Shown here one piece after another: positions 11,585 through 56,199 of a stretch of 62,563 nt of DNA. How positions within the stretch are numbered: the stretch's first letter is position 1; each line of letters opens with the position of its first letter. The notes beneath the pieces are model-generated. The model did no database searches and was not told where the DNA came from. It saw only the letters and a program-made list of their open reading frames with translations. The stretch lies in IMG/VR virus record IMGVR_UViG_3300021445_000002. One strand, written 5' to 3'. This DNA comes from a virus (lineage: Duplodnaviria > Caudoviricetes). Both the position numbers and the translations under genes were made by a program.

Positions 11585-12580
11585 CTAATTGGTGTGCGAG
11601 AGGTCGTACTTGCGCGCCTTGGCGGCGCTGGTGTGCTCGCCGGTCCACGCACCCCGCGAGACTGCGCGCTGCCAGATCAGTTCCAGTTCGGTTACCGACT
11701 CGGCCGCGCGGATCTCGGCAATGACCGATTCCTCGTCGCCGGCCCGCCAGTCCGCCCAGGGCATGGCGAGGTTCTTGCGGGTACGCCAGCGGCGCACGTC
11801 GGCGCACAACTGCGCGGCCTCCCAGCCGGCCTTGATGTCGACCGCGTACAGGTCGCAGGTGCCCGAGCCGACCGGCATGTGCATCACCACGGCCACGTCC
11901 TGGTCGATCGGCGGCAGTGGCCGGTACGTCTGGGTACGGGTGTCCCACAGCGCGGCGCCGTGGGCGTAGCAGGCCAACTGCACGCTGATCTCCAACATGC
12001 CGAACGAGATCACGTCCCTACCCGACTTAAGGTCACCGACCAGGTGGCCGGTCGGCCGCCACAGCGGTCGCAGCAGCCGGTCGAAGCTGCCAGCGAGGTT
12101 GAACTCCGGGATGACCACCAGGCCCTCGATCCAGTTCGGATCGACCGCGAGCTTGCCGGCCGCCAGCGCCCGCGAGTACGCCGAGATATCAGCGGCGAAC
12201 TCGGGCGGCACCACCACGTCCTCGCCGCGGTCGACCCGCTCGGTGATCGTGTGCTTCGCGGTACCCTGCCGGGCCGCGACCGACGAGCCGGCGGCCTCCT
12301 TGGCGTCGACCGCGACCTGATCGAGGGTCTTTTTGTCGGTGGTCGGTGTAACACTGACCAGGCTGAACAGGTCCGGCCGCAGGGTCAGCCCCTTGAGGGC
12401 CATCCTCAACTCCCATTTCGTCAGCGCGAACGTGTCGCTGATCGACTTTGCGAACGTAGTGACGCGGGTGAATGCCATCTCCCTGCCGGTCTGCGGATGC
12501 GGGATCAACGGGCGACCCCACCGATCTCGCTTCGGCTCGGGCGCGGCGTGCAGGCTGTCGAGTAGCGTCGGGCCGGTCAC
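11585..12580 (-). CDS. Cas4/RecB-like PD-(D/E)XK exonuclease
   Basis: RDRWGRP...TRVTT...L..W; GT.KH; AGSFDR...GDLKSG...QLACYA. Confidence 0.85.
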   Translation of the reverse strand: MTGPTLLDSLHAAPEPKRDRWGRPLIPHPQTGREMAFTRVTTFAKSISDTFALTKWELRMALKGLTLRPDLFSLVSVTPTTDKKTLDQVAVDAKEAAGSSVAARQGTAKHTITERVDRGEDVVVPPEFAADISAYSRALAAGKLAVDPNWIEGLVVIPEFNLAGSFDRLLRPLWRPTGHLVGDLKSGRDVISFGMLEISVQLACYAHGAALWDTRTQTYRPLPPIDQDVAVVMHMPVGSGTCDLYAVDIKAGWEAAQLCADVRRWRTRKNLAMPWADWRAGDEESVIAEIRAAESVTELELIWQRAVSRGAWTGEHTSAAKARKYDLSHTN

Positions 12581-15899: not shown

Positions 15900-16082
15900 G
15901 TCCACTTTGGATTTTATTACGGAAAAATAACTATTTCTTGACGTCTATATCCGCAGGTCAGAGGCTGAAAGAAGAGAAGTTCAATTTCCGTATTTTAGAG
16001 CGATTCGATACCCTATCGGCAATGAAGTCCTATGAGGCACTGTAGGGCATTGTGTGTTGTTATTCAATACTGATCAGGAGGT
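15900..16082. promoter_or_regulatory. AT-rich region upstream of the integrase (promoter and possible attP)
   Basis: strongly AT-rich tract, TTATT...AATAA inverted repeat, AGGAGG at about 16076. Confidence 0.45.
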
Positions 16083-17144
16083 TTGTCTGAATTGAGCGTT
16101 AACATGCGAACCGCCGCCGACGAGTTCCTACAGAAGGGACTGACGCACCGGTCGGCCGGCACGCGGCGCGCCTACGCCCGGCCGCTCGATGTGTTGGTCA
16201 ACGTCACCGGCGAGCGGATGCCGATCACCCGGCTCGACCGCACGCACATCGATGAGGCCCTACGACTCAGCAAGGGGGGCATCGCGCTCAAGGTGCCGGC
16301 GTCGCGCCGGCAGGAATTGCACGGCCGCTCCGAGGAGTCGCTGAACGTGGACCGGACCGCATACAGCCGGTTCGTTCATTACTGGCAGACGCGGGGGTAC
16401 TTCCACGGCAAGATCAGCCCGACAGCTCATATCGAATACGCGAAGCGGAAGCGCAAGAGCGGCGAGCGCAAGCGCCCGCTAACGATCGAGGTGGGCATGG
16501 AGGTCATGCGACTAGCTGGTGAGACTCACCCACGGGACCGCATGGCCGTCGCGCTTGCGCTTTTCACTGGCATGCGCGTCTCCGAAATCGCCGCCCTTCG
16601 GTGGGGTCACGTGAAGTGGGCCGATAAGGAGATCCACTTCCCGCGCGACAAGGCGGACGATGAACACGTGGCCATGTTCAACCCGCCGCTGGAGCGGGAG
16701 CTGCAAACATGGCACGGCATCTATGGCGAACGGCACGGCACTATCAGCGATGACTGGTACGTCGTGCCCGGCCGACTGCAAGGCAAGTACCGCGATCGGT
16801 TTGATCGCATGAACCCCGACTGGCCGATGATCCCGAACCGGCCAGCCACCAACTTGTACGTCTGCCTCAAGCCGTTGTTGGTCGCGGCTGGCGTGCAACA
16901 CCTGGACGGCAAAGCGTGGCATACCCTGCGCCGGACGTTCGCCAACGAGTTCTACGAGGAGAAGCGCGACATCCGGTCCGTGCAGGAAGCGCTGGGCCAC
17001 AAGAGTGAGAAGACCACGGAGATCTACCTTGACATGGATGAGCAGCGCAACAAGAACAAGATCGCGATGAGGAACTGGGACCCAACCCGCAAGATTGCCC
17101 AGGCCACCGGCAACGTGGTGCCGTTCCAGCGCAAGGCTCAGTAG
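16083..17144 (+). CDS. tyrosine recombinase/integrase, XerC/D-like size
   Basis: TGMRVSE, WHTLRR, LGHKS, TTEIY catalytic motifs; start may be 16092 or 16104. Confidence 0.93.
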   Translation: MSELSVNMRTAADEFLQKGLTHRSAGTRRAYARPLDVLVNVTGERMPITRLDRTHIDEALRLSKGGIALKVPASRRQELHGRSEESLNVDRTAYSRFVHYWQTRGYFHGKISPTAHIEYAKRKRKSGERKRPLTIEVGMEVMRLAGETHPRDRMAVALALFTGMRVSEIAALRWGHVKWADKEIHFPRDKADDEHVAMFNPPLERELQTWHGIYGERHGTISDDWYVVPGRLQGKYRDRFDRMNPDWPMIPNRPATNLYVCLKPLLVAAGVQHLDGKAWHTLRRTFANEFYEEKRDIRSVQEALGHKSEKTTEIYLDMDEQRNKNKIAMRNWDPTRKIAQATGNVVPFQRKAQ

Positions 17145-21467: not shown

Positions 21468-21686
21468 TCAGTCCTCCTGGTTGTCGTCGCGCGGACGCGA
21501 CGGTTCCATCAGTCGCCAGAACACCAAGCTGGCGCCGAGGCCGACCACGAGCATCAGTCCGCACGCCAACCACAGCCCGATGGCGGTTGGCGTATCGCTG
21601 TGCAACGCCTGCTGGCTGAACGTGCCGACCGCCAGCCCGAGCAGTCCGAAGAAGGCCATCGCGACGACGTGGTGGTGCTCGCTCAC
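21468..21686 (-). CDS. small membrane protein
   Basis: two hydrophobic helices. Confidence 0.6.
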   Translation of the reverse strand: MSEHHHVVAMAFFGLLGLAVGTFSQQALHSDTPTAIGLWLACGLMLVVGLGASLVFWRLMEPSRPRDDNQED

Positions 21687-22855
21687 GCCGCCACCCCCAT
21701 CGCCTGCACCAGCCGGCGCAGTTCGGCCGACCCGCCGCCCCTGGCGTCGCGCTGCATCTGGCCGACGATCTCGCGCACCGAGGAGCGGGTGCGGGTCTCC
21801 TGCGGGGCGACCTCGTGGGCGCGCAGGAAGAACGCGACGGCCCGCTCCGGTTTGCCGGCGAGATACCAGGCCCGGCCGGCGTCCATGTCGAAGCGGCTGG
21901 CCCGCTGGCGGGTGACCAGGTGCGTCCGGTTGACCTGCAGGGACAGGTTGACCGCCCGGTCGGGGTCGGTGCCGTTCGCCTCCAGCGCGCCCGCGATCCG
22001 CCAGGTGCGCACGTTGTCGCGGGTGAACTCCATCAGCCACGGGTCGACCTCGTCGCCGGGGGTGGCGGCCAGCGTCTCGGCCTGCTCGAAGTGTGAGGCC
22101 GCGCCGCCCTGCTCGCCCGCGCTGGACGCGCACAGGCCGGCGTGCAGGTGCAGCATGCCGGCCCAGACCCGCTCGGTCGGCGGCAGCGCGTCGGCGGCCT
22201 GTACGGCGACCGACCTAGCGCGGCGGCGGCTGCCCGAGGCGAGCAGGGCCTGCGCGTAGGCGAACTCGGCGGCGGCGTAGTCGTCGGCGTGGCCGGTGTC
22301 GGTGGCCACCCGCCGAGCGGCCTCGGCCAGCCGCATGGCGAGATCCTGCCAGCCGATCGGGCGCAGGGTCAGCGAGCCGGCGACCAGGCCGCGCACCAGC
22401 AGCGGACCGGCCCAGCGGTGTCCGGCGTCGTGCGCGGCGCGGGTCTCGGCGAGCAGCGCGGGCAGACCGGCGCTGATCAGGCCGTAGTCGCACGCCATCC
22501 GCGCGGCCATGATGGTGCGGGCCAGCACGACCAGCTCGCGGCGGGGCCGCCAGATCACCGGCTCGTCGGGGTAGTCCAGCGCGGCGCGGATGCCGGCGAC
22601 CGCGGACAGGCTGACCAGATCCTCGCGCGTGGACGCGGGCAGCGGGATGCCGAGCAGTTCCTGGCTGGGCACGTGCAGCGCCTCGGCCAGCGCGAGCAGC
22701 GTGTGCCGGCTGGTCACCGGTTTCTTGAGGCTTTCAATTTTGCTGATGAACGGCTGGCTTAACCCGGCCGCGTCGGCGAGCTGCTGCTGGCTCATGCCGC
22801 CGGCCAGCCGGAATCTGCGTACCTGCCGGCCGATCCCGGCATCGTCGGTCGTCAT
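21683..22855 (-). CDS. XRE-family HTH regulator with helical (TPR-like) C-terminus
   Basis: IGRQVRRFR...GMSQQQLADAAGLSQPFISKIE; typical actinobacterial architecture. Confidence 0.85.
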   Translation of the reverse strand: MTTDDAGIGRQVRRFRLAGGMSQQQLADAAGLSQPFISKIESLKKPVTSRHTLLALAEALHVPSQELLGIPLPASTREDLVSLSAVAGIRAALDYPDEPVIWRPRRELVVLARTIMAARMACDYGLISAGLPALLAETRAAHDAGHRWAGPLLVRGLVAGSLTLRPIGWQDLAMRLAEAARRVATDTGHADDYAAAEFAYAQALLASGSRRRARSVAVQAADALPPTERVWAGMLHLHAGLCASSAGEQGGAASHFEQAETLAATPGDEVDPWLMEFTRDNVRTWRIAGALEANGTDPDRAVNLSLQVNRTHLVTRQRASRFDMDAGRAWYLAGKPERAVAFFLRAHEVAPQETRTRSSVREIVGQMQRDARGGGSAELRRLVQAMGVAA

Positions 22856-23068
22856 GGCGGTTACTGTAGCGCTCACTGCGGGCCACTCTCCGTCGGTTCT
22901 ACTAGGGGGTGGCGCGGGGCGGGAGTCAGGCCGCGTTCCCCGCGGTCTGCATGCCCGCCCCGCGCCGGACGCGCCGCCGGGGCGTGCGGCTCCCAGTGGT
23001 TGGCGGCGCGCTGGTGCGGTACGCCCCGGCTGACCTCCCACAGCCAACTGCAACCGGGGCGCACGTCT

Positions 23069-23491
23069 CTATTCGTGCCGGTCGTGGCTGGTGAACCGCC
23101 GCCTGGACCAGCGCCAGCTCATGTGTCGCACGTACGGGTAGGCCATCCCGAAGAAGACCGCGATGGTGCGGGTCGGCTGGTCGGCGACCGAGAAGCACAG
23201 TGCCGCCACCGCGACGAAGGCCAGGAACAGCGCGTTCCAGCCCCACCAGGTGCGTTGGTCGATCGCGCCGGTGACCACGCCGGACACCTTGGCGGGCCTG
23301 GGCAGCCGACCGCTGGTGGTGCCGGCGATGATGTGCCGCGCGTTGATCCAGACGGCGCCGATGTTGCCGTCGGCCTTGTGGTCGTGGATCGAGGTCAGCA
23401 GCGCCTCGGCCCGCTCCGGCGGCATCGACAGGAACAGCGTAACCAGGTCGTTGTCCTGGTCACGTCGCTCGTCGGCCTCGACTTCGGTCAC
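23069..23491 (-). CDS. membrane protein
   Basis: two C-terminal TM segments. Confidence 0.6.
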   Translation of the reverse strand: MTEVEADERRDQDNDLVTLFLSMPPERAEALLTSIHDHKADGNIGAVWINARHIIAGTTSGRLPRPAKVSGVVTGAIDQRTWWGWNALFLAFVAVAALCFSVADQPTRTIAVFFGMAYPYVRHMSWRWSRRRFTSHDRHE

Positions 23492-23655
23492 GCCCGCGCC
23501 CCTTCCCTCGTTGTCCCCGCCAACGGGTGACCTTGCGCTCGGTTACGCCTGCCGGGTGATGTTCATCCGATGGCGTTACTTACGTTGCGTGCCCTCGTTG
23601 CCCTACCTTAGTAGTCACCCCTGGTGGCCCGGCTCGGGCTGAGAGGTAGGGAAAG

Positions 23656-24960
23656 TTGTCGAATTACAACGGCGACGTGCTCGACATGATCGCGCGGTGT
23701 CGCCGCATCGGGTGGGTCGTAGAGAGCGCGCCGCGTGATCGTGGCGTGCGGTGGTGGTACCGGGTCTGTCCACCGGGGACGGCCAAGAAGATCGAGATCC
23801 ACGGCAGCCCGCGCAACGGCGTCACCGAGATCCGCAAGCGGTGGAAGGATCTCAACGACCTTGGGTTCGCCGCGGCCGAGGCCGAGTGGGAGCGCCGGTA
23901 CCGGGCCACCAAGAACAAGCGGCTCACCGAGGAACGCGAGAAGGCCGAGGCCGAGGCGAAGCGCCTGTCCGATGAGGCCACCAAGAAGGCCAAGCAGGCG
24001 GCGCTGACCGAGCGCGCGGCCGGACCGTACGCGGAGAAGGAACTGGAACTGGACTGGTTCCTGACGCCCACCCAGTTTCCGGAAACCCGGTGGCGCTGGG
24101 TCACTCCCGAAGCGGCCGAAAAGGTGCTGGAATCCATCAACACGCATAACCGCGACGAGTCCGAGGGTCGGATTCAGTACTTCGTCGACGAAATCGAAAA
24201 CGAAGGCGAACTCGCCTCCACGCACCAGGGCGTCGCGGTGGACTGGAATGGCGTCTTCCAGGATGGACAATCGCGGTTCGCGGCCATCAGGCGCACCGGC
24301 AAGAAGCAGTTCATGGCCTGCACGGTGGGCATGGCCCCGAAGAACTTCGATTGCATCGATACCGGCCAGCCACGTACCGCCGCGCAGAACGCGAAAGTGG
24401 AGGGCGAGGCCGATCCGAGCATTCTCACCGGGGCCGCCGCGATGCTGTTGCGCATCGAGCGCGACAACACCCGCGCGCATGCCTCGACGCGGCGGATCAG
24501 CAACTCTGCGGTGCGCCGCTTCATCCGCGAGGCCGGCGATCCGCTGCGCGCCGCCGTGGTCGAGGCCAAGCACATTCGCAAGTCGCTGCGCCGGGCGAAC
24601 GCGAACGCGCTGGTGGCAACCATCTATCTGATCCGCCAGGCGCTTCCCGGCGACACGCGGGTGGATGAATTCTTTGAGGCGCTGCGCACCGGCAACGCCC
24701 CCGAGACGGACTACGCCTGGGAATTGCGCCAGAAATTCATCAACGGCCGGACCGTCAACGGCGGTAACCGGGCGTATCCGCAGTGGATCGCCGCCGCGCT
24801 CATCCTCAAGGCGTGGCGGCACAAGCACAGCGGTTCCGACAAGAGGTTGCAGTTCCGGCCCGCCGACGAGCCATTCCCCTACGTCTACCTGCCGCCCAAG
24901 GATGACGAGACTGCCGCTGCGGTCGTCGCGGCCTCCGTCGAATTGAGCGAGGCGGCCTAG
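23656..24960 (+). CDS. ParB/Srx-like domain protein with HicA-like N-terminus and coiled coil
   Basis: VTPE.A..VL...NTHNR...QG.A.D.NG.FQDGQSR..AI; N-terminal GWVVE...YRV.PP....IHGSP. Confidence 0.65.
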   Translation: MSNYNGDVLDMIARCRRIGWVVESAPRDRGVRWWYRVCPPGTAKKIEIHGSPRNGVTEIRKRWKDLNDLGFAAAEAEWERRYRATKNKRLTEEREKAEAEAKRLSDEATKKAKQAALTERAAGPYAEKELELDWFLTPTQFPETRWRWVTPEAAEKVLESINTHNRDESEGRIQYFVDEIENEGELASTHQGVAVDWNGVFQDGQSRFAAIRRTGKKQFMACTVGMAPKNFDCIDTGQPRTAAQNAKVEGEADPSILTGAAAMLLRIERDNTRAHASTRRISNSAVRRFIREAGDPLRAAVVEAKHIRKSLRRANANALVATIYLIRQALPGDTRVDEFFEALRTGNAPETDYAWELRQKFINGRTVNGGNRAYPQWIAAALILKAWRHKHSGSDKRLQFRPADEPFPYVYLPPKDDETAAAVVAASVELSEAA

Positions 24961-24962
24961 GC

Positions 24963-25262
24963 ATGTACGACGTGTACGGGGGCGTGACCGAATCCGGCGC
25001 GGAGATGCGCCGGCTGCTGGAGCGGGTGCGCGAGGACGCCGAGCGCACCGGCTGGCACTGGCGCTACCTGGAAACCGGCATGATTGCGCACGCGTTGGCC
25101 GCCGGTGCCCATGGTGGATTGAACCGGGTGGCCGCCTGCGGCATGTTCCCGCGCGGCTATTGGAGTGAATGGCTGGGCGGCGGCAGTCAGCGCGAGTACG
25201 AGCGGGCGGCGACGATGCCCAAGTGCCGGCGCTGCATGCGGAGGGCGGTGGAGCAGGCGTGA
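24963..25262 (+). CDS. hypothetical protein
   Basis: HAL...AACG...W.G.GSQ.EYE.A..PKCRRC. Confidence 0.65.
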   Translation: MYDVYGGVTESGAEMRRLLERVREDAERTGWHWRYLETGMIAHALAAGAHGGLNRVAACGMFPRGYWSEWLGGGSQREYERAATMPKCRRCMRRAVEQA

Positions 25263-25900
25263 GTCTGGCGGCGGTCGGGCCGGCCGGTGGCGGGCACCTG
25301 GACGGGCTGTGCGTGACGGTGCGCCGGGAGAGGCGCAAGAAGCACAAGCGGGCACGCCCGCAGGTGGGGTTCACGCTGCACGAGGCGACCTGTGGCTACG
25401 TGGCGCGGGCCGGGGACGGCAATGTCATGCCGGCCCCGGCCACGCCGTACCCGAACACGGTGGACTGCACGTACTGCAAGCCGACCGGCAAGCACAAGCT
25501 GACCTACGTGGACCTACCCGACGGGACGGTCGAGGCGGCCTGCTCGTGCGGGTCGGCCTCGGCCGTCGCGGGCACCCGCGGCGCCGCCTACCTGCGGCTG
25601 CTGCGCAGCCACGAGGAGATCCGCACCAGGCCGCCGCGACCGGCACAGAAGGCGACCCGCAAGTCGACAACGACCACGGTGACAACGACCACGGTGACAA
25701 CGACGGACGGCAGACGACGTGGTCGCCACAACGGCGACCACGTCGTCAGGCTTGACTTCTCCACCCTGCCGAGCGGGCAGGTGCTCGTCACCTGCACGGG
25801 CTGCGGTGAATCCGCGGACGGCCCGACCAGGAACGCGGCGAAGCTGCGGATGTGGCGGATGCACAGGAGGGCGAAAGATGTCTCGATCTCCGACTCATGA
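25259..25900 (+). CDS. hypothetical protein with duplicated Zn-ribbon-like units and Thr-rich linker
   Basis: H.L...LP.G.V...C..CG twice; 15-bp repeat at 25666-25704. Confidence 0.6.
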   Translation: MSLAAVGPAGGGHLDGLCVTVRRERRKKHKRARPQVGFTLHEATCGYVARAGDGNVMPAPATPYPNTVDCTYCKPTGKHKLTYVDLPDGTVEAACSCGSASAVAGTRGAAYLRLLRSHEEIRTRPPRPAQKATRKSTTTTVTTTTVTTTDGRRRGRHNGDHVVRLDFSTLPSGQVLVTCTGCGESADGPTRNAAKLRMWRMHRRAKDVSISDS

Positions 25901-26093
25901 CCTGCCCCGGTTCACCGAGAACGAGGAAGTGGCGGTGAACCTGCCCGGCCTGCGCCAGTCGCTGTACGGGCGGGTCGTCCGTCAGGACGGCCTCACAATC
26001 ACGGTCACCGTCTTCCGCGGCGAGGAACGCGCGAGGATGACCGTGGACGCCGACCTGGTCCGGCCGTGGTTCACCCGTGGGAGTGGACGGTGA
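25878..26093 (+). CDS. hypothetical protein
   Basis: AGGAGG RBS plus ATG. Confidence 0.6.
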   Translation: MSRSPTHDLPRFTENEEVAVNLPGLRQSLYGRVVRQDGLTITVTVFRGEERARMTVDADLVRPWFTRGSGR

Positions 26094-26614
26094 GCGGACT
26101 GGTCCTGCGCTCGCCGCGCTGCCCCGGCTGCGACACCCCGCCCGTGTTCGCGTTCGACGCGCAGGGCTTCTGCGGCACCTCGGACTGCCAGGTGGTCACC
26201 TGGGACCGCACCGACCGGCCCGAGACGTTCAAGGCCAAGGCGGTGAAAGTCGACCTGTCGCCGTTGCTGGGCGACAACGTCGTCGTTGCAGTACCCGTGA
26301 GCAAGCCCGCAGAGGACTGGCAGGAGTTCAGCAAACCGATCCCCGAGATGGACCCGCGACACGTCGCCGCGCTCGACCACGCGCACGCCATGTCCCGGGA
26401 CATGGCGTCCTGGGCGTACGGCTACGCGCGGCACCTGATCGGGGAGGGTGTCGGCGACATGGAGGCGTTCACCCGCGTCGCGGGGGGCGTCGCGCAGCAG
26501 TTGGCCCAGTGCGCCGGCAACCCGAGTGACGCGTTCGGGCTGGCCATGACCACGATCGCCTTCTTCGCCACCAACACCGAGGCGGAACCCGAGGACCAGG
26601 ACGGGTCGGCGTGA
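26090..26614 (+). CDS. hypothetical protein with N-terminal Zn finger
   Basis: CPGC...FC...C. Confidence 0.6.
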   Translation: MSGLVLRSPRCPGCDTPPVFAFDAQGFCGTSDCQVVTWDRTDRPETFKAKAVKVDLSPLLGDNVVVAVPVSKPAEDWQEFSKPIPEMDPRHVAALDHAHAMSRDMASWAYGYARHLIGEGVGDMEAFTRVAGGVAQQLAQCAGNPSDAFGLAMTTIAFFATNTEAEPEDQDGSA

Positions 26615-26729
26615 GCCCAGTCGCGGTGTCCGTGCTGGCCGGACTCGCCGGGGGCACCGGCGCGCTCCTCGGGGTCGTCGTCGGCGGCGCCGTGCTGATC
26701 ACGCGCCGGGACCGGCGGGAGGGCCGACG

Positions 26730-27032
26730 ATGAGCGACAGGATCCACGTCCCGGACGGCGCGAAGCTCGACGTGCTGTTCGCGGGCGGCGCGCACCACTA
26801 CTGGTCCACGCACTGCCGCCACGACGACCACGACGCCTGTAGTGCAACCGAGCTGGCGCCCGGCGTGCCGCGCAAGCCGGCCCAGTGCAAGAGGTGCGGC
26901 GCGGCGTGCATCTGCCCGTGCCACGACACACGCCGGGCAATGCTCGACCTGCTCGACGCCCTGCAAGGCGTGGAGCTACCCGAGCACGTCAAGTCCGCGC
27001 ACCGGATCGCACTGGCGGCGGTGGACCGGTGA
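26730..27032 (+). CDS. Cys/His-rich hypothetical protein
   Basis: STHC.H..H..C...CKRC...CICPCH. Confidence 0.7.
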   Translation: MSDRIHVPDGAKLDVLFAGGAHHYWSTHCRHDDHDACSATELAPGVPRKPAQCKRCGAACICPCHDTRRAMLDLLDALQGVELPEHVKSAHRIALAAVDR

Positions 27033-27250
27033 CCAGCCGCGTCCCGGCGACGCGCCGCCTGCGCTACCTCAGCGCCGCGTTCGTGACGTGCATGTTCACC
27101 GTCGCCGCCCTGGCCCGCTTCATCCGGCCGGGCGGCAACTGGGCAACCTGGACCGCGCTGACCCTGTGCGGGGTGTCGTTCGTGCTGCTGTCCATCGCGT
27201 TCCGCGACGCGAAGCGCGTATACGGCGACCACACCGACGAGGTCGAGTAA
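27029..27250 (+). CDS. small membrane protein
   Basis: two TM segments. Confidence 0.6.
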   Translation: MTSRVPATRRLRYLSAAFVTCMFTVAALARFIRPGGNWATWTALTLCGVSFVLLSIAFRDAKRVYGDHTDEVE

Positions 27251-27282
27251 GAGGCCGGGCGCGATGGGGTTGGATCAGAGTC

Positions 27283-27594
27283 ATGAGCCCGCTCGCCCGT
27301 TTCCTGCACAAGTGGTCCGCCGCGCTCGCCGCCTACGAGGAGGCGAGCGCCCGGTTCAACCGGGTGACCGGCGAGTACCTGGCGCTGATCGGCACGCCCA
27401 AGCACGGCGAGCCGGGTGCGATGGCCAAGCTGCGCGGCGAGCGGGCCCAGCTCTACACCGAGACCGAGGTGCGCATCCTGGCCAAGAAAGACTTCTACCG
27501 GCAGAAGGCCATCTCCGACCAGCAGTTCTGGTCGGCCGAGGCGACCATGTACGGCATCGCGGCACTGGTCGAGATGCTGCGTGAGGAGGGGTGA
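27283..27594 (+). CDS. hypothetical protein
   Basis: coding-like ORF MSPLARFL... Confidence 0.6.
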   Translation: MSPLARFLHKWSAALAAYEEASARFNRVTGEYLALIGTPKHGEPGAMAKLRGERAQLYTETEVRILAKKDFYRQKAISDQQFWSAEATMYGIAALVEMLREEG

Positions 27595-27595
27595 C

Positions 27596-27886
27596 GTGAA
27601 CGGTGAGCCGATGATCGACGCTGGGGCCAATCCCGCGCGGCGCAGCCTGGGGTTCGACCTCGCCCGCCTGCTGGGTGACGCGTCGTTTCGTGCGCGCCTG
27701 CGCGCGATCGGCCACGAGGGCGAGGTCCTTGTCCCGATCTTGCCTGGCGACAGCTTCGCCGCCTTCTTGGAACGCCTGGACGACCACACCGACCGCTGCC
27801 TGCTCGCCTTCCGCGACGCCCGCGCGCCGCATGGCTGGCGGCTGGCGTGGTGGCACGAGCCGCGCGCCACCGACGCGGCGTACTGA
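27596..27886 (+). CDS. hypothetical protein
   Basis: GGAGG RBS plus GTG. Confidence 0.55.
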   Translation: MNGEPMIDAGANPARRSLGFDLARLLGDASFRARLRAIGHEGEVLVPILPGDSFAAFLERLDDHTDRCLLAFRDARAPHGWRLAWWHEPRATDAAY

Positions 27887-27975
27887 GAGGACTGCCGAAA
27901 ACTGCCCGCGCTGTGGCCAACCACCGGTCCGTCGCCGACCTGGTACCGGCGGCTGTGGCGGTGACGAGTAGACGG

Positions 27976-28152
27976 ATGTGGAAGGTGATCGATACCCTGG
28001 CGCACTTCCTGTACTGCCCGACCATGTTCTTCCGGCGGTGCGCCCGCGAACGGTGGCACCACCGCATCCACCTGATGCCCGGCCGGTGGTTGGCACCGAT
28101 CTGTGACCGGTACGAGCGGTGGCTGGGCGTGACGCCGGACGAGTTGACGTAG
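27976..28152 (+). CDS. small hypothetical protein
   Basis: MWKVIDTL...; start uncertain. Confidence 0.45.
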   Translation: MWKVIDTLAHFLYCPTMFFRRCARERWHHRIHLMPGRWLAPICDRYERWLGVTPDELT

Positions 28153-28181
28153 GGACCGCACTAGTGGGAGGGGCATGCCCC

Positions 28182-28502
28182 GTGATCCGAGACGACCTCA
28201 TCAACGCCCTGCGGAGCGTCGAGCTGCCGGCCGAGGTGCGCGCCCGCGTGCCGTACGGTGAGCTGGCCGATGCCGTGGAGCCGGTGCTGCTCGGGGCGGC
28301 CGAGCGCATGGCGGCCAAGTGCTATCTCGACGCCGAGATGCGAGCCGCCCGCAAGCGCGGCCAGGAGTTGGGCAGCGTCGCCGCCGAGCAGCCGTCGATC
28401 ACCTGCCCGAAGTGCGGTGGAACCTCGTACAACGCCAACGACATCCGCAAGGGCTACTGCGTCAAGTGTCACGAGCGGACCGGCACGCCGACGCGGCTCT
28501 AG
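28182..28502 (+). CDS. hypothetical protein with C-terminal Zn finger
   Basis: SITCPKCG.TSYN.ND...GYCVKCH. Confidence 0.7.
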   Translation: MIRDDLINALRSVELPAEVRARVPYGELADAVEPVLLGAAERMAAKCYLDAEMRAARKRGQELGSVAAEQPSITCPKCGGTSYNANDIRKGYCVKCHERTGTPTRL

Positions 28503-28537
28503 TTGACGAAATCCGTTATCGACCAAGGGAGGTGTTC

Positions 28538-28744
28538 ATGCAGGTTGCGTCGTGGCAGCCGGACGAGCCGGTTGCCGAGGTGCGTTCGGGCGAGACGGTC
28601 GCCGAGTTGTACGCGGCCCTGCCCGAGAGCGAGTGGGTGATCGTGCACGGGATGCTCGTCAAGCGGATGGGCGACCCGCCGACCCCGGAGGACATCCAAG
28701 ACTTTCGGCGCATCGCAGAGACGCGGGGCAAGGGGCCAATCTGA
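28538..28744 (+). CDS. cassette-borne hypothetical protein
   Basis: GGAGG RBS right after site 1. Confidence 0.7.
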   Translation: MQVASWQPDEPVAEVRSGETVAELYAALPESEWVIVHGMLVKRMGDPPTPEDIQDFRRIAETRGKGPI

Positions 28745-28944
28745 TGGACCTGTACTTAGCGAACGGCCGAAAGCTGGGCCGCGTGGAATCCCATGCCCTG
28801 CAAGCGATGGAGGCCAACGGCCAGCCACCCGAGGTGGTCGTGTGGGGTGAGCGGATGTTCGCACTCAACGCACACGGTCGCTACGTCGAGGGGCTGGCGT
28901 GGGTCATCACCGATACCGAGGACAACCGGCTCGTGCTGAGTTGA
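28744..28944 (+). CDS. cassette-borne hypothetical protein
   Basis: TGATG overlap; stop inside site 2. Confidence 0.65.
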   Translation: MDLYLANGRKLGRVESHALQAMEANGQPPEVVVWGERMFALNAHGRYVEGLAWVITDTEDNRLVLS

Positions 28945-28977
28945 CGAATTCAGGTTATCGACCATTGAGGAGTGTTC

Positions 28978-29211
28978 ATGCAGGTCAGAGGGCCGTGCGC
29001 CAACCATCCGAACCGGCCCGGTGCGTGGCTGATGGAAGACGGCTCGATGCGGTGCGACCCGTGCTACTACCGCCGGCAGGGCCGGATCGAGGCCGCCGAG
29101 ACGATCTGGGCCAAGGCCAAGCAGTTGCGCGCCGAGTTCCGCACCGGCCAGTACGGCATCGAGTACGTCAACGGCTTCGAGGACGCCTTCGCGCTGATCG
29201 ACCCCGAGTAG
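28978..29211 (+). CDS. cassette-borne Zn-finger-like protein
   Basis: C..H...W...DG..CDPCYYRRQ. Confidence 0.7.
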   Translation: MQVRGPCANHPNRPGAWLMEDGSMRCDPCYYRRQGRIEAAETIWAKAKQLRAEFRTGQYGIEYVNGFEDAFALIDPE

Positions 29212-29248
29212 TTGACATACTTCGATGTTATCGACCAACGGAGGCTCG

Positions 29249-29734
29249 ATGAGCACCAAGAAGGGCCGGTACGGCGACCCGCGTAAGCGCAGGCCGATGG
29301 GCGATCTGTACGCGGCGGCGCAGCCCAGTGGAGCCAGCGATCCGCGCAAGCTCGGCGGCTCGATGTCCGGGCCGGGCGGACCGCACGACCGGGGCGCGAC
29401 GGTCATCGACGCGACCGACGCCATCCTGCTCGACTACACCGAGGTCTGCACGATCGACACCGTGCGCGGCGGCGTGCTGGGCGGGCAGGCGATCTTCATG
29501 ACGCTCGACGGGCGGATCAACAAGACCACCGACCGGGTGCGGGTCGGCTACATCTTCGACACCGACGGGGCCGCCGCCATCATCACCGAGCTACTGGCGC
29601 TGGCCGACCGATTCGGCCCGGAGATGCTCGACGATGTGACCCGCCGGCTGACCTCGCTGTACCGCGACAAGCACGTCGACCTCGCCTGGCTGCGCGCGGC
29701 CATCGACAACGCGATCGAGAACGCATCAGGTTGA
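29249..29734 (+). CDS. cassette-borne hypothetical protein
   Basis: GGAGG RBS; stop inside site 4. Confidence 0.75.
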   Translation: MSTKKGRYGDPRKRRPMGDLYAAAQPSGASDPRKLGGSMSGPGGPHDRGATVIDATDAILLDYTEVCTIDTVRGGVLGGQAIFMTLDGRINKTTDRVRVGYIFDTDGAAAIITELLALADRFGPEMLDDVTRRLTSLYRDKHVDLAWLRAAIDNAIENASG

Positions 29735-29767
29735 CATACCTCCTGATTATCGACCAACGGAGGGCTA

Positions 29768-30043
29768 ATGCTGCGACTGCACCTGTACTGGAAACGCGAC
29801 AGCGGCGACATTGACCTGGGCGACTGCTACCACGATGTGCTGCCGCCGGTTGGGTCGTTGATCTCGCACACGTCGCCGGAGCACGAGGGCGGGGTGTGGC
29901 GGGTCGCTCTGGTCTACTTGCACCCGGCGTATGAGGGGTCGATGGCGGTGCGAGCCGTTGAGATGGGCCGGACGCCGCCGGACGGGCAGGTCGGGATGGT
30001 GGAGCTGTTCGTGGAGCCCGCCGCGGGGCCGCACGCACCTTGA
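29768..30043 (+). CDS. cassette-borne hypothetical protein
   Basis: GGAGG RBS; stop inside site 5. Confidence 0.7.
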   Translation: MLRLHLYWKRDSGDIDLGDCYHDVLPPVGSLISHTSPEHEGGVWRVALVYLHPAYEGSMAVRAVEMGRTPPDGQVGMVELFVEPAAGPHAP

Positions 30044-30079
30044 CGTAAGTCGCGGTTATCGACCAACAGGGAGGGCGAT

Positions 30080-30292
30080 ATGGCACGTGACCAGGGCGTC
30101 TACGGCCTGATCTTCAATGGACTGACGACGGCACTGACCAAAGAGCAGTGGATGCCGCTGTCCGAGCGGGAACGCGTCGCCGCCGCGATCTACGACACGC
30201 TCGAGGGTGCGGGGGTGGAGTTCCATCGCGGCGGCCTGGACCGCCTGTGGCGGGTGGCGGCCGAGCACGCCAACAAGCTGCGGCAGAACTGA
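30080..30292 (+). CDS. cassette-borne hypothetical protein
   Basis: GGAGG RBS after site 5. Confidence 0.7.
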   Translation: MARDQGVYGLIFNGLTTALTKEQWMPLSERERVAAAIYDTLEGAGVEFHRGGLDRLWRVAAEHANKLRQN

Positions 30293-30341
30293 CGGCAGCC
30301 GGGTTAACAGAATCACCGTTACCGACCAAAGAGGAGACGTC

Positions 30342-30608
30342 ATGGCCGGTCAGGGCGGTCCGGCGCGCATGCCGGTTCACGGGGACTGCCGCTGGCACCG
30401 AGGCAGGGCCGCCGCGTGGTGGCTGCCGGACGGCACATTCCTGTGCGACCCGTGCATGTACCGACGGCAAGCGATCAACGAGGTCATCGACTACGTCACC
30501 AACGATCTACCTGGGATGGACCCGGCGACGCGGGCCGGGGTGCTCATGTCGATGCGCAGCTTCCTTGCCAACCGCCCCGAGGCCAATATTGACGTACGCA
30601 CGGCTTGA
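30342..30608 (+). CDS. cassette-borne Zn-finger-like protein, paralogue of 28978-29211
   Basis: C..H...W...DG..CDPCMYRRQ. Confidence 0.7.
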   Translation: MAGQGGPARMPVHGDCRWHRGRAAAWWLPDGTFLCDPCMYRRQAINEVIDYVTNDLPGMDPATRAGVLMSMRSFLANRPEANIDVRTA

Positions 30609-30631
30609 CGTAATCACGATCGAGGAGCGTC

Positions 30632-30979
30632 GTGACCCAGATGATCCCGGACCCGACCGACGACACGGTGTGGTTCATCGGCTCCGCTGCCGAAGCCGAA
30701 CTGGGCGTGCAGGTCGGCGACGCCACCCTGTTCAACGTCCATACCCCCGACCTGTGCGCGGGACAGCACTGTGTGGTCCACCGCCCGTCGGCGCACCACA
30801 TGCGCGGCTGGCGGCTGAACTGGCGCGGCGACCGGGGCCTGATGGAGCGGCTGTGCCCGCACGGCACCGGCCACCCGGACCCCGACGACCTCGCCTACCA
30901 CTACCGTGTCGGTCGGGGCTGGATGGGCGTGCACGGCTGCGACGGCTGCTGCGCGGCCCGCGACCTGCCCGTCCGTTGA
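30632..30979 (+). CDS. Cys/His-rich actinophage-type hypothetical protein
   Basis: C.G..CVVH.PS.HHM..W...WR.DR..MER.CPHG.GHPDPD...HGCDGCC. Confidence 0.75.
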   Translation: MTQMIPDPTDDTVWFIGSAAEAELGVQVGDATLFNVHTPDLCAGQHCVVHRPSAHHMRGWRLNWRGDRGLMERLCPHGTGHPDPDDLAYHYRVGRGWMGVHGCDGCCAARDLPVR

Positions 30980-31245
30980 TCGTTGAACCCGGCGTGGATG
31001 ACGGGGACGGGACGCATCCGCTCGCGGATCTGGTCATCACCTGCACCCGCCGGGACGGCTCGACCTACATCCGGCGCATCCCGCGCCCGCGCTGGTACGC
31101 CGAGGTGTACCGGCTGTGGCGGCTCGGGCTCAACGACGGGGAGATCGCCCGCTCGCTGGAGCGGCCGGTCGACACGATCTACACCGCGCGGGCGCGGCAG
31201 ATGAAGCTACCCCGCAACACCTACCCCGGCGGGCAGGACCGGTGA
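30976..31245 (+). CDS. small HTH protein
   Basis: LWRLGLNDGEIARSL. Confidence 0.6.
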   Translation: MIVEPGVDDGDGTHPLADLVITCTRRDGSTYIRRIPRPRWYAEVYRLWRLGLNDGEIARSLERPVDTIYTARARQMKLPRNTYPGGQDR

Positions 31246-31493
31246 GCGACGCATAGTTGCGGCCCGGCCGGGTGCGACCGACCGGGCCTGGTGGGCGAGG
31301 AGGCAGTGGGTCGACGCGCCCGCTCCTGCCCAGGCCACGTCGCGTCGACCTTTTCAGTTGTGTCTCCCTGCGGTGCGCCTCGCGGGTTTGGGGCCTCGCG
31401 GGGATTGCCCATCAGGATGCGGTACGCGCCGGTTTGATCGGAAGACTCCGGCGGGTGAATGAATACACCCATGCATCCTGCAAGGTGCGGAAT

Positions 31494-31536
31494 GCAAAAA
31501 GCCGCCCCGCTCCCGACCGGAGTCGGGAGCGGGGCG
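31494..31536 (-). terminator. intrinsic terminator at the end of the late operon
   Basis: CGCCCCGCTCCCGAC..GTCGGGAGCGGGGCG followed by GCTTTTT on the minus strand. Confidence 0.85.
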
Positions 31537-31571
31537 TACCCCCTGGTGCATCGAGCGTCTCGGAGCAGATC

Positions 31572-31841
31572 CTACTTGCTGCGGGCGGCGGCGAGTAGCC
31601 GCGCCACGGTCTGTGGCGAGTAGACCCGGCCGCGGGTCCACAGTGCGGTGACGATCGGCGCGGCGGTGGCGATGACGGCGAGCAGGGCGGCCTGGACGTG
31701 GTCGTTGATCGGCAGGCCGAGCGCGACGATCAGCGTCAGCAGCGCGGCGACGGCGGTCGAGATCATGCCGATGGTGACTGCGGGTTCCGCGTCGGTGTTG
31801 TCCGGGGCGGGCTCGGGCGGCAGGCTGTTGTAGACGGTCAC
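31572..31841 (-). CDS. holin-like membrane protein
   Basis: EPAV...AALL.L.VA.GLPI...Q.A.L...R.RV.SP; two TM segments. Confidence 0.75.
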   Translation of the reverse strand: MTVYNSLPPEPAPDNTDAEPAVTIGMISTAVAALLTLIVALGLPINDHVQAALLAVIATAAPIVTALWTRGRVYSPQTVARLLAAARSK

Positions 31842-32635
31842 GCGCTCTCCTGTTCGGTGAAGCAGCCGCAGCCGCCCCAGTCATCGCGGTCGACGTCCTG
31901 CGTAACCTCGACGCGCTCGCGCAGCGCGGTCAGCGTGAGCGGCTTAAGCGTGCCGCCGCGCCGGTTCCGCAGGATTGATACGTCCTTGCCGAGGTAGTCG
32001 CGCATCTCAGCCTCGGCCCGCTCCTCGGCGGCGTAGCGCTCCGGGTTGACCTCCAGCAGTCGCGCCCATTGCGCCTGCCCGCCCCGCACGCAGGCGCCGC
32101 CGCAGTTGTTGTGGGCGAACCCTTGGGCGTACATCCGGGGTGGCTCGATGCCGCGCGCCCTGGCCTGCTCGATCAGGTGGCGCTTCTCGACGTAGGGCGG
32201 CGAGCACAGCGGTGCGGCGACCGACCACTGCCCGTACCCGCGCCGGATGGCCGGCAGGCGGTGGGTCTCGGTCCAGTCGATGCCGACATACACGGTAGTG
32301 GCGGCCGGGTCGGTGTTGGCCTCCAGCCATTCCCGGCACGGCACCTGCTTGAGCTTGTGCGAGCACGGCGCGATCCGGGTGTTGCCGATGTGCCGCACGT
32401 CGCGGAAGAGCTGCCACGGTGTGCGCCCGTCGGCCACCACGGTGATCGGCACGCCGATGTCGCGGGCCACGTCCTCGTTGAATCGGTACAGGTCCGGGTC
32501 TTCGACCTTGGTGTCCGCGAACAGCAGCACGAGATCATCGGTGCCGTGTTCGTCGGCGACCCGGCGCGCGGCGGCCCAGCTCGTGATGCCGCCGGAGTAC
32601 ATGACGACGTGGCGCACGGTGGGCACAACGATCAA
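31838..32635 (-). CDS. PAPS-reductase-like (PP-loop) protein
   Basis: VVMYSGGITS, LFADT..ED.DLYRF, CS..LK, HNNCGGAC, GGCGC. Confidence 0.85.
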   Translation of the reverse strand: MIVVPTVRHVVMYSGGITSWAAARRVADEHGTDDLVLLFADTKVEDPDLYRFNEDVARDIGVPITVVADGRTPWQLFRDVRHIGNTRIAPCSHKLKQVPCREWLEANTDPAATTVYVGIDWTETHRLPAIRRGYGQWSVAAPLCSPPYVEKRHLIEQARARGIEPPRMYAQGFAHNNCGGACVRGGQAQWARLLEVNPERYAAEERAEAEMRDYLGKDVSILRNRRGGTLKPLTLTALRERVEVTQDVDRDDWGGCGCFTEQESA

Positions 32636-39027: not shown

Positions 39028-42000
39028 TCAGAACCTCCGGGTCAGGTGCGGGATGACCGCGTCGGCGACCCTGCGGCCATCCAGGTTGAGGTGGGCCGGG
39101 CGGGTGGACAGCGCCTGCGCGAGCCGGTTGATCGTCCAGTCGTCGAGGCGCATCTCGCCGCCGTTGCTGCTGACCGCCTCGGCGTGCTTGACGTAGGCGC
39201 GGGACTCGGTCGGGGTCAGCACCGCCTCGGGCGAGCCGGTCGCGTTGTACCCGAAGTCTTTGAGCCAGCCGCCCGCGTCGTAGCCGTGCCCGTGGCCGAG
39301 TACCCCGAGCACGTCACCGTGGTAGCGGTGCTTGACGTAGTTGAGCGCGGCGAGCAGGTTGTCGTAGCCGTTGTAGATGTTGCCGTGGCCGGGGAAGGCG
39401 TACTGCAAGAACGTCGGCGGCGTGGTCTGCATCAGGCCACGGGCCAGGTTGTTGGGCCAGTTGACGTCGTGCACCTTCTGGATCGCCAGCTCGTTGCCGC
39501 TGGACTCGGTGACGATCTGGCGCAGCACCGCGTTGACGTAGTCGTTGCTGGCCGGGAATCCGTTGTCCCGCAGCGCCTGCTCGACGGTGGCCCGCCACCG
39601 GTTCACGCCGGTGCCGGCCGCCTTGCCGGGGTCGCCACCCCCGGCGATGCCCGAGTTGACCCGGGCCGCGCTGGTCAGGATCTGCTTGATGATCCCGCCC
39701 CACAGCCCGCCGACGGTGACGTTGGCCGCCTTGGGTGCCGCCGTGCCGCCGCCGGGGACGCTGACGAACTTGTCGCCGAGCTGCGGCAGGTACATGACGT
39801 TGGGGAAGCTGAGCACGTTCGACGTGTGCGGGCCGATGAGGATGCCGTCGCGGGAGTTGGCCGCCTCGAAGTTCAGCCCGCCGAGGTTACCCATCGTGTG
39901 CCCGGCGTTGAACCCGACGGTGAACGTGCCGGTGCCCGGCTTGAACCCGTGCGCGGTCAGGAACGCCCGCTCGTTGCCGGTGACGAAGTACCGCTTGTAG
40001 TCGGCGTTGCCGGTCAGCCGCGCCCACACCTCGCCGACCAGCGACGAGCAGTCGTAGGCGGTCGGCCCGTTGGCGCCCATCACGTAGGGCAGCGGGTCGA
40101 CGGTGCCCTTGAGCCAGTTCTGCACCGCCGCGACGGACGAGCCGCCGGCCGCCGAGGACAACACGCCGGCCGAGCCCATCAGGGCGTTGATGTTCTGCTG
40201 GATCGGCTCCCACCAGGTGTCGATCGGCTTGTTCAGCGGCAGCACGAACCCGCCGCCCGAGTAGAACCGGTCGGCGTTGATGGCCTCCAGTGCCATGCGG
40301 TGCTTGCGGGTGGACTTCGCGTTGACCACGAACTCTTCGGCGTTGAGCATCGCCGGGATGTTGTCGGCCGCGTCGTGCGGCGACCAGCCGCCGACCAGGC
40401 CGCCGGCCGCCTTGAACTGGACGGGACCCTTGTGCTGCGGCACTGGGCCGAACGGCACTGTCTCACCAGTCGACGGTGGCGTCCACTGCACAACGTCGAT
40501 GCCGTACAGCTTCGCGAGCTGCGCCAGCCCTTGGTACTGCTGGTAGATGTGATCGAGGCTGATCTTCGCAGAGCCGTTGTCGGTGATCTGCAAGTTAAAT
40601 TGGTGGTCGAGCAGCTTCGAGTTTTCGTAGAGAGCCTTGGCCGCATCCTTGGTCAGGTTCAGGTGACCCAGAAGATCACCGAGGGCCTTCCCCTGCTTGT
40701 CAAACGCGGTGTTCGCGTCGTCAACCGCCCGCCGGGCCAGCTCGTTCTGGTGCCGGCTGCTTTCCAGCGTGTTGGCGTAGTTTTCGTGGGCCAGCTTGAG
40801 GTTGCGCTGCTGTTCCAGTTCGTTGCGGCGCGACTCGGCAAGGCTGTGCTTAGCGTCGACCACGTCGGGCGTGCCCTCGACGCCCTGCTTCTGCGCGAGT
40901 GCGAGCTTGTCGCGCAGGGCCGGCGCGTCGGCCTGAAAGTCGGCGAGCGCGTTGCGGGCCTCGTCGAGGCTGACCACCGCCTGGCGACGGGCCAGCGCCT
41001 CGGCGGGCAGGCCGCGGGTCTGTACCTCGGCCAGTTGCGCCTCGACGAGCCGGATCTTCAGCTCTTCCTCGTTGTCGCCGATGTCGCGAACCTGCCGCTG
41101 CAAATCCTTGAGGTTCTGGATCGCGTCTTTGCGGGCCTGGGTCAGCGACTTCTGCGCCTGCTCGGTGGCGTAGTGCGCCTCGGCCAGACCGTGCTCGGCC
41201 TCGGTGACACCGTGCAGCGCGTTCTCGTTGGCCTGTGCGGTGGACTGCGCGGTCTGCGCCGCGCTGTACCGGGCGTCGTCCGCGCTGCGCTGCGCGCTGA
41301 GGTAACTGGCGTACGCGTCGGCGACCGTGTTGACGGTCTTGACCTCGGGGCTGAACTCGTCGCCGAGCTGGCTCTGGAAGTTGGAGAAGACCGTGTTGTT
41401 GGCGGTGATCGCGTCGGTGACCTTCTTCCACGACACCGCGTTCTGGTCAAGCGCCGGGGTCAACGCGTCCATCGCGGCCTTGACAGCCTCGGCGGCGGCC
41501 TTGTCGTCGGTCAGCGCGTCGGCGGCGGCGTCGAAGTCCTTTTCGTTGAAGTACTTCTTGACGGCGAGAATCGGCGACAGGGCCGCCAGTCCGGTGGGAG
41601 TCTTGTCGGCTGCACCCTGCTTCGTGCGGATCGCGTCGATCTGCGCCTGGATCGCCTCGGGGCTGCCGCTGGCGATGGCCTGCACGACGCTGGGCAGTTC
41701 CACCCCGTACTTATGGGAGTGCAGGGCCAGGTCACGCAGCGCCGAGTCGCCGGCCGCCAACTGGCTCACAAACTCCTGCGAGATCTGGCCGGTGGACTTG
41801 TAGCTGTCGGCAAGTTGCTTGAGCGACGACGCGAGGGTGTCCGAGGTCTGCTTCTGTGCGGACATGGCACCGGTGACGCTGCCGACGGCCGCGCCAACCG
41901 CGGCGCCACCAGCCGCTGCAACCGGGCTGCCAAACATGCCGACACCGGCACCGACACCGGCGCCGGACAGCGCGCCGCCGAGGATCGGGTGACCCGCATT

Positions 42001-55891: not shown

Positions 55892-55944
55892 GGTTGTTTC
55901 TCTCCCGTGTCGGGTGTGGACACCGCCGTGTCGGCGGTGCGGTG

Positions 55945-56199
55945 TTACTTGAGCGAGCCGTCGCTGGCCCAGTTCTCCGGTAGGAGGTTGGTCAGTCCGA
56001 GCGCCTTGGCGCGGCGGATGATGTAGCGGCGTACCGCGGCGCGGCCGGCGTCGCCGCCCTTGGCGCGGCCCACGGCCTTGATGGCGCGCTGCAAGCTGGC
56101 CTTGTCGGTGATCGGGTATCGACCGCCGCGCTCGCTGTCGGGCATGGCCTGGCCCTTGTCGGCGAGACCCTTGCGCTGCTCCTTGCTGTAGTCAGGCAC
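55945..56199 (-). CDS. small basic capsid-region protein
   Basis: G.AMPD...YPI....L..AI.AVGR...II.RA..LG...LP..W. Confidence 0.7.
   Translation of the reverse strand: MPDYSKEQRKGLADKGQAMPDSERGGRYPITDKASLQRAIKAVGRAKGGDAGRAAVRRYIIRRAKALGLTNLLPENWASDGSLK

Follow-up and report, generated by a model that had tools for sequence, protein, structure and literature searches.

Mobile DNA that exploits the Xer recombinases is known in the form of whole filamentous phages or islands at chromosomal dif, and of modules on Acinetobacter plasmids; the gain and loss of small accessory genes by phages is mostly attributed to illegitimate or short-homology recombination. On the Acinetobacter plasmids, recombination centred on the dif-like sites of these so-called pdif modules was observed by polymerase chain reaction (PCR), according to PMC13141974. 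IMEX elements, such as VGJ-phi, TLC-phi, CTX-phi and the gonococcal GGI, are mobile DNA carrying a dif-like site, whose serial integration gives rise to tandem elements separated by dif-like sites (PMC5357621 and PMC3025954). Here we describe an array of dif-like sites, all in the same orientation, that divides a block of small genes in a tailed-phage genome. The array lies at 28142-30613 of IMG/VR virus record IMGVR_UViG_3300021445_000002 (Duplodnaviria; Caudoviricetes), whose 62,563 nt constitute the stretch analysed as a whole and are referred to as the window. A dif-like array in a tailed phage was not found reported in the open-access literature.

The window represents a tailed-phage genome of ~62.5 kb, which encodes a large terminase (TerL), a long tape-measure-like gene, a family A DNA polymerase, a primase-polymerase/helicase, a tyrosine integrase and a helix-turn-helix (HTH) repressor-like gene. 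Its early operon occupies 23656-31245 on the + strand and begins with an exonuclease VIII-like gene, and the array corresponds to a 2.5-kb stretch of small genes at the far end of this operon. From 23656 to 28152, the operon genes overlap or abut without spacers; at the junctions between 28152 and 30632, each gap measures 35-45 bp and contains the motif described below. Sites are thus found at all non-overlapping gene junctions of the 2.5-kb stretch, invariably on the + strand, and the modules between them are 264-519 bp long, each fused to a ribosome-binding site.

The array opens with a left arm only (s0, AGTTGACGTAG, 28142-28152), whose final letters form the TAG stop of the gene before it (27847-28152) and which is not followed by a right arm. 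The first two-armed site, s1 (28501-28526), reads AGTTGACGAAA-TCCG-TTATCGACCAA, with a 4-bp spacer, and passes directly into GGGAGG and an ATG at 28538. It is succeeded by s2 (28939-28965; AGTTGACGAAT-TCAGG-TTATCGACCAT), with a 5-bp spacer and the TGA stop of open reading frame (ORF) C within TTGAC, and by three sites with 7-bp spacers: s3 (29210-29238; AGTTGACATAC-TTCGATG-TTATCGACCAA), followed by CGGAGG and an ATG at 29249, s4 (29729-29757; GGTTGACATAC-CTCCTGA-TTATCGACCAA) and s5 (30038-30066; CCTTGACGTAA-GTCGCGG-TTATCGACCAA), the latter two containing the TGA stops of ORFs E and F, respectively, within TTGAC. The sixth, s6 (30302-30329; GGTTAACAGAA-TCACCG-TTACCGACCAA), has the sole 6-bp spacer in the array, and both of its arms are degenerate. 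An extra left-arm copy, TATTGACGTAC, is located at 30587-30597 within the end of ORF H, and a degenerate seventh site, s7 (30603-30627; GCTTGACGTAA-TCACG-ATCGA-GGAG; left arm at 30603-30613), has a right arm that is cut short and merges with the ribosome-binding site of ORF I. The original prediction, made from the letters of this DNA, had named six two-armed sites, all of which are present at those positions and with those letters, as well as three sites consisting of a left arm only; the latter description holds for 28142 and 30587, and that at 30603 keeps the remnant of a right arm.

Two properties of the sites, both anticipated in that prediction, tie them to the borders of genes. The upstream stop codon overlaps the left arm in five of the six two-armed sites, s6 being the exception, and GGAG or GAGG begins 0-2 nt past the right arm and is followed by an ATG in all six. 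The stops fall in three registers relative to the motif, with TAG before TTGAC and TGA inside it, which is why we discarded a simple origin of the motif from stop codons. Four of the six sites have an identical right arm, and one mismatch is seen in each of the remaining two; the left arm and the spacer are variable. The base bordering the right arm is G in five of six sites and in the relative introduced below, with CG in s1, s5 and s6.

The sites are present beyond chance. At up to two mismatches, the right arm has 11 matches in the window as opposed to 3.76 expected, a number reached by none of 100 shuffles, and the six matches with no more than one mismatch are exactly those of the array. 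A composite pattern of both arms has five matches in the window (0.00 expected), and in the 3.35-Mb assembly to which the phage contig was assigned (G000) it returned five forward, no reverse and no control matches, all of them within the array. The 8-mer TTGAC[AG][AT]A occurs 12 times in the window; eight of these copies lie on the + strand at 28144-30605, three are coding-region copies at 39188-39533, and there are otherwise none outside 28142-30613. An independent repeat finder recovered the same repeat families (D1 and D3).

That the sites resemble dif, as the original prediction held, is confirmed at the level of sequence and strengthened by comparison with the dif of the assembly, of actinomycetes and of Frankia alni, and with a canonical copy in a relative. 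A loose pattern derived from the array, TTGAC[AG][AT]A.{5,8}TTAT, has six matches on both strands of the 3.35-Mb assembly, namely five array sites and one site on contig C50. The C50 site, AGTTGACATAA-TACCCC-TTATGCGACAT, is intergenic and single-copy in the assembly, and at up to three mismatches it is found in 31 of 41 genomes of the same family, once in each except for G035 (two copies), with no control match; it hence behaves as the assembly's dif. The same contig also carries XerD (334.7 bits; cut-off 329.6) and a XerC-like gene (239.8 bits; below the cut-off). On C50, dif, xerD and the xerC-like gene fall within 20 kb (46614-46641, 55669-56181 and 65793-66284, respectively), and the XerD ORF as listed comprises 526 amino acids, with ~240 extra N-terminal residues ahead of the XerD match.

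Across an even sample of 401 Actinomycetes genomes, TTGACATAA-N6-TTATCGACCA at up to two mismatches was found in 37 genomes (38 places; nearly always once per genome), as compared to four control matches, and seven of the 38 places have a single mismatch (e.g., TTGACATAA-TGTTCA-TTATCGAGCA). The array consensus, RGTTGACRWAA ... TTATCGACCAA, differs from these single-copy actinomycete sites at only one to two positions, and it agrees with the F. alni dif given in PMC3025954, which reads ACTTGACATAA-TGTGCA-TTATCGGCGTG when reverse-complemented. The left-arm consensus, reverse-complemented to TTATGTCAACT, resembles the XerD binding sites tabulated for pdif in PMC13141974 (TTATGTTAAAT). Based on this resemblance and on the layouts in PMC5357621, we infer that the left arm corresponds to the half-site of XerD and the right arm to that of XerC. 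In that same paper, dif-type sites have a central region of 6-8 bp. The corresponding spacers are 6 or 7 bp in s3-s6, 4 bp in s1 and 5 bp in s2, and the relative has 6 bp.

The sites might resemble dif by coincidence if they were merely duplicated sequence from between genes in which TTGACA, the common -35 hexamer, served as a -35 box. Yet there is no -10 box at the right distance, the consensus comes within one mismatch of actinomycete dif, and a relative carries a canonical copy. Given that the array-derived pattern finds nothing in 3.35 Mb apart from the array and dif, and given the result for the 401 Actinomycetes genomes, a chance likeness is not credible, and we regard this explanation as improbable in the extreme.

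The canonical copy resides in L192 (IMGVR_UViG_3300028709_000006), a viral contig of 14.7 kb and 67% G+C, whose TerL is 60.6% identical to that of the window over 553 amino acids and in which five other structural genes match at 30-50%. L192 has one site, with the canonical 11-6-11 layout (GGTTGACATAA-ACATTG-TTATCGACCAACGG, 11993-12023). Between convergent operons, it comes after a + strand block of small genes and directly precedes the end of a - strand glycine-rich tail-fibre-like gene, with neither a ribosome-binding site nor a gene after it. The right side of this site equals s3 and s4 over 14 letters, even though the proteins of the two phages are only 30-60% identical; the DNA site itself is therefore conserved, independently of translation start. 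A conserved copy with no gene downstream speaks against a purely translational role and for an Xer-type DNA site, and the possibility that the right arm is a translation signal only was rejected on account of this copy. The L192 site might itself serve a tailed phage for Xer-dependent attachment or resolution; an integrase was not seen in the 14.7 kb of the contig.

L192 was the sole relevant locus among those returned by exact-pattern scans of viral contigs, which yielded 61 loci, mostly from one unrelated family of ~45% G+C, and 22 loci, all but one with a G+C content of 0.29-0.58. Among the matches listed for another such scan, there were only single, chance-level ones. Protein queries of the viral contigs with ORF E or the exonuclease-like gene retrieved no relatives, a query with a PAPS-reductase-like gene gave three loci with no sites, and the L192 gene adjoining its site found only itself. 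Contigs L175, L187, L188, L189, L197, L210, L214, L220, L224 and L227 match GTTGACATA-N5-8-TTATCGAC; outside the abundant ~45% G+C family, exactly 6 bp is the commonest spacing of such matches, and the centre in L175 is TACCCC, as in the assembly's dif. These contigs may carry true dif-like sites.

What is observed comprises the sites, where they lie, their resemblance to dif and the canonical L192 copy; from these, we infer Xer binding, insertion and an order of events as follows. The distal end of the early operon would harbour a dif-like site resident in the phage lineage, which an L192-type relative would keep as a single canonical 11-6-11 copy. XerC and XerD of the host would insert small promoterless cassettes one after another at this site, each cassette consisting of a right arm, a ribosome-binding site, an ORF, a stop codon within a left arm, and a spacer, and each insertion would duplicate the site. 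If, as described for VGJ-phi, TLC-phi and GGI among the IMEX elements, the exchange were restricted to the XerC side, the XerC arm would remain constant and each cassette would bring its own XerD arm and spacer. This would explain why the right arm is constant while the left arm and spacer vary, and why the right arm keeps a neighbouring G or CG. Decay would then account for the short spacers in s1 and s2 and for the worn arms in s6 and s7, four copies that may have little or no activity left. We tentatively favour this origin of the array, in which small cassettes entered one by one at a site already present in the phage and left Xer sites derived from dif, while giving it somewhat less than an even chance; the capture mechanism is plausible, with real points against it. 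A bolder version is doubtful, namely that an integrase-bearing tailed actinophage possesses an integron-like platform, whose resident dif mimic captures and expresses single-gene cassettes by XerC-side exchange, with L192-type phages representing the empty platform.

Several observations weigh against cassette capture by Xer. No two spacers of the array are alike (TCCG, TCAGG, TTCGATG, CTCCTGA, GTCGCGG and TCACCG), and two of the six, with 4 and 5 bp, are shorter than the 6-8 bp of dif-type sites; on Acinetobacter plasmids, every pdif recombination observed in PMC13141974, whether inversion or excision, used pairs with identical or nearly identical 6-bp spacers. The phage encodes a tyrosine integrase of its own and therefore does not need Xer for lysogeny, and its true host is uncertain. 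The array was not found in 40 other genomes of the assembly's family, nor in the 401 Actinomycetes genomes (three single matches as opposed to six in the control), in 80 TerL-related loci (1.02 Mb), in 15 full records of TerL relatives or, using megablast and blastn, among GenBank phages, where nothing relevant was recovered. For ORF E, there are 289 homologues in public proteins, the closest of them 73-75% identical, and the neighbourhoods seen are unrelated; of 24 loci with such homologues, the nearer ones being 54-71% identical, none has sites and none shares another array gene. Among these 24 loci, ORF E was not seen as a module in different site-bounded contexts, a trait of pdif modules, and the other cassette genes were sought in those fetched loci only. 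The ORF E family is large and unnamed, comprising phage-like contigs of 38-75% G+C as well as Streptomyces phage ZL12 (43% identity), always with different neighbours.

Neither of two checks proposed in the original prediction gave signs of gene movement. Gene content was expected to change at site boundaries, and no relative examined shows such a change. Excised circles were to be sought among reads, and the sole sequencing run found, the probable source of this DNA, which is kept as contigs, shows no joint linking two sites: a public contig of 62,466 bases that holds this DNA spans the array without a site-to-site joint, which likewise counts against capture. The run contains one low-depth joint from 29412 to 30095, inside ORFs E and G and away from the sites. 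One further low-depth contig joins 31233, at the end of the last operon gene, back to 29231, with 21 other letters between them. The latter position lies 3 nt inside the right arm of s3; this joint could stem from a co-occurring relative in which the genes are ordered differently, or from a false alignment, and we draw no conclusion from it. Of the cassette reading in the original prediction, the dif-like nature of the sites stands, insertion or excision of the genes by XerCD or the phage integrase is hypothetical, and the spacers and the relatives weigh against simple cassette exchange by XerCD.

The likeness between neighbouring junctions bears on a different origin. In s1 and s2, it extends 22 nt past the right arm, via the ribosome-binding site into ATGCAGGT of ORFs B and D, and the stretches common to both are AGTTGACGAA and GTGTTCATGCAGGT; s3 and s4 form a second close pair, with GTTGACATAC and TTATCGACCAACGGAGG in common and 85% identity over 34 nt. 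The likeness of s1 and s2 beyond the right arm better fits duplication or homologous exchange of whole junctions than a crossover at the spacer, and is to be added to the points against Xer-mediated capture. The sites could accordingly be recombination linkers with no present site-specific function: an ancestral dif-like site would have been copied along with its flanks whenever duplication, or homologous or illegitimate recombination, brought in further genes, and the junction repeats of 35-50 bp would serve as homology patches for shuffling between co-infecting relatives. That neighbouring junctions are the most alike, that the likeness reaches beyond the arms, that the spacers have undergone indels as if Xer geometry were not under selection, and that the paralogous ORFs D and H sit in separate units would all fit this explanation. 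Arms free of selection, however, would be expected to degrade as the spacers have, yet four of six copies keep an identical right arm, and 14 letters are common to s3, s4 and the L192 site despite the divergence of the proteins; moreover, no relatives at hand show an exchange at the junctions. We consider mere linkers unlikely.

The position of the sites within an operon raises the question of regulation. A DNA-binding protein of the phage or the host might read the left arm, the right arm or both, and thereby control read-through or the expression of the accessory genes, be it as a stoperator-like block in lysogeny or with host XerC and XerD acting as roadblocks and not as recombinases. The stoperators of phage L5, which are known repeated regulatory sites, provide a parallel. 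The sites are asymmetric, point one way relative to transcription and fall between a stop codon and the next ribosome-binding site; conservation spans the right arm into the ribosome-binding site and, for s1 and s2, into the start codon; and the arm-to-arm spacing varies by 3 bp, as expected if the arms are read separately. Intergenic repeats thought to regulate genes are also reported in other actinophages (PMC9302106 and PMC9671010). On the other hand, the L192 copy is followed by neither a gene nor a ribosome-binding site, no copy is present in the divergent control region (23491-23656) beside the HTH repressor-like gene (21683-23050), and the likeness to dif is explained only by the variant in which Xer proteins are the binders. 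None of the six sites has a sigma-70-type promoter (-35/-10 hexamers 16-18 nt apart), the sole such prediction in 23000-32000 being at 29556-29583. The six junctions fold no better than shuffled sequences (z-scores of -0.60 to +1.08), and Rfam has no match at the sites at E-values up to 1. The original prediction had named a promoter or a repressor operator as the alternative to recombination; no sigma-70-type promoter is called at the sites and the control region lacks a copy, and either remains a candidate function. Taken together, we deem a regulatory function rather unlikely, albeit one to be reckoned with.

As a further candidate for an enzyme acting on the sites, the tyrosine integrase of the phage (16083-17144) belongs to the Phage_integrase family (E = 9.5e-21) and has a weak likeness to Xer models (70 bits to XerC; cut-off 335). 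Its gene is 11 kb away from the array, though, the AT-rich stretch beside it (~15900-16083) has no dif-like sequence, and the array sites match host-type dif and not any sequence near the integrase gene, which makes a role of this enzyme at the sites very improbable. Lying immediately ahead of the integrase gene, the AT-rich stretch could represent attP.

As to the host, TerL is 57.6% identical to that of mycobacteriophages such as Phrux, Lilac and 244. A TerL search over the assembly's class, which makes up an entire small phylum, returned only the window itself (one of 206 genomes). The right arm of the assembly's dif, TTATGCGACA, matches the phage right arm at six of 10 positions, as compared to nine of 10 for Actinomycetes dif. 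The phage contig (G000:C108) is thus probably mis-binned in its assembly.

The genes of the array are all on the + strand. ORF A (28176-28502; 108 amino acids), whose TAG stop overlaps the left arm of s1, has weak zinc-ribbon-like matches below the cut-off. ORFs B (68 amino acids) and C (66 amino acids) overlap at ATGA and form the sole two-gene unit between sites (28538-28944). ORF D (28978-29211; 77 amino acids) is a paralogue of ORF H (30342-30608; 88 amino acids), whose TGA stop lies within the left arm of s7; the two are 37% identical over 57 amino acids (E = 6e-12) and have the motif C..H...W..DG...CDPC.YRRQ in common, possibly a small zinc finger, with neither having a family match. ORFs E (29249-29734; 161 amino acids), F (29768-30043; 91 amino acids) and G (30080-30292; 70 amino acids) have no family match, and ORF G stops 10 nt ahead of s6. 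ORF I (115 amino acids; GTG at 30632) and gene J (~30979-31245), the last + strand gene, together occupy 30632-31245 and have no site between them. Pfam and PHROGs searches with the nine array ORFs and one neighbour gave nothing above the cut-off, Pfam searches with further neighbour genes gave nothing useful, and the ESM Atlas returned no named family for ORF E.

Outside the array, a 15-bp G+C-rich hairpin followed by a T run at 31503-31536, between the convergent early (+) and late (-) operons, is likely a strong terminator. The phage genome further contains a tRNA-Met gene (anticodon CAT) at 1939-2015 on the - strand. The window starts with a 35-bp tandem repeat (1-127), present in 3.6 copies in the window and five in the assembly contig C108 (G000:C108:1-2930). 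The 2.8 kb ahead of this repeat in C108 contain other small phage-like genes in a different ribosome-binding-site context, and the join at the repeat may be an assembly chimera or a genome end.

If the favoured origin of the array holds, a site-specific cassette system driven by host enzymes in a tailed phage would represent a third route, next to whole phages or islands at chromosomal dif and to plasmid modules, and Xer-based gene mobility would extend to high-G+C Gram-positive hosts. The claim lends itself to direct testing, since sites, candidate enzymes and expected junctions are specified. Should the sites be regulatory instead, a phage copying host dif for gene control would still be unusual.

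How, then, does the array compare with known systems? As in the pdif modules of Acinetobacter plasmids, small accessory genes are partitioned into modules by numerous dif-like XerC/XerD sites on a single replicon. However, pdif sites are of the 11-6-11 type, with 6-bp spacers and alternating orientation in C and D modules (PMC13141974), whereas the array has one orientation and spacers of 4-7 bp; recombining pdif pairs share their spacers and the array sites do not. Further, pdif modules are borne by plasmids of a Gram-negative genus, the array by a high-G+C tailed phage, with short modules that are each fused to a ribosome-binding site. IMEX elements exhibit the same asymmetry as the array, in that the XerC side is kept and the XerD side or the central region is divergent (PMC5357621 and PMC3025954). 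They are whole phages or islands that enter chromosomal dif, whereas here the proposed target is inside the phage and the proposed inserts are single genes; the contig is without host flanks, the array is internal to the phage genome, and the phage also has its own integrase, such that the likeness concerns the mechanism only. With integron cassettes, the array has in common the same-orientation series of small promoterless genes, each ending at a tyrosine-recombinase site. Integrons have an intI-attI-Pc platform and attC hairpins, and the array has neither: its dif-like sites are double-stranded and not folded single strands, and the sole tyrosine recombinase is the generic phage integrase 11 kb away.

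Two kinds of phage repeats are likewise similar in part. The stoperators of Cluster A phages and the start-associated sequences of Cluster K phages are short, asymmetric, one-way repeats in tight stop-start gaps, like the sites described here; they are spread genome-wide, include the main operator and are not dif-like, whereas the array is confined to 2.5 kb and absent from the control region. In T4-type phages, promoter/stem-loop cassettes, to which the linkers considered above would be comparable, form repeated regulatory junctions on either side of small accessory genes in variable regions, and a role in gene shuffling is attributed to them. These cassettes carry an early promoter and a hairpin, neither of which was found at the array sites. 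The array is set apart from pdif modules by its orientation and dissimilar spacers, from IMEX elements by its location away from a chromosomal dif, and from integrons by the lack of intI, attI and attC. By analogy, it would be most like pdif modules and IMEX arrays in its working and like an integron in its layout, which suggests a variant of Xer-site-bounded gene modules that belongs to none of these systems.

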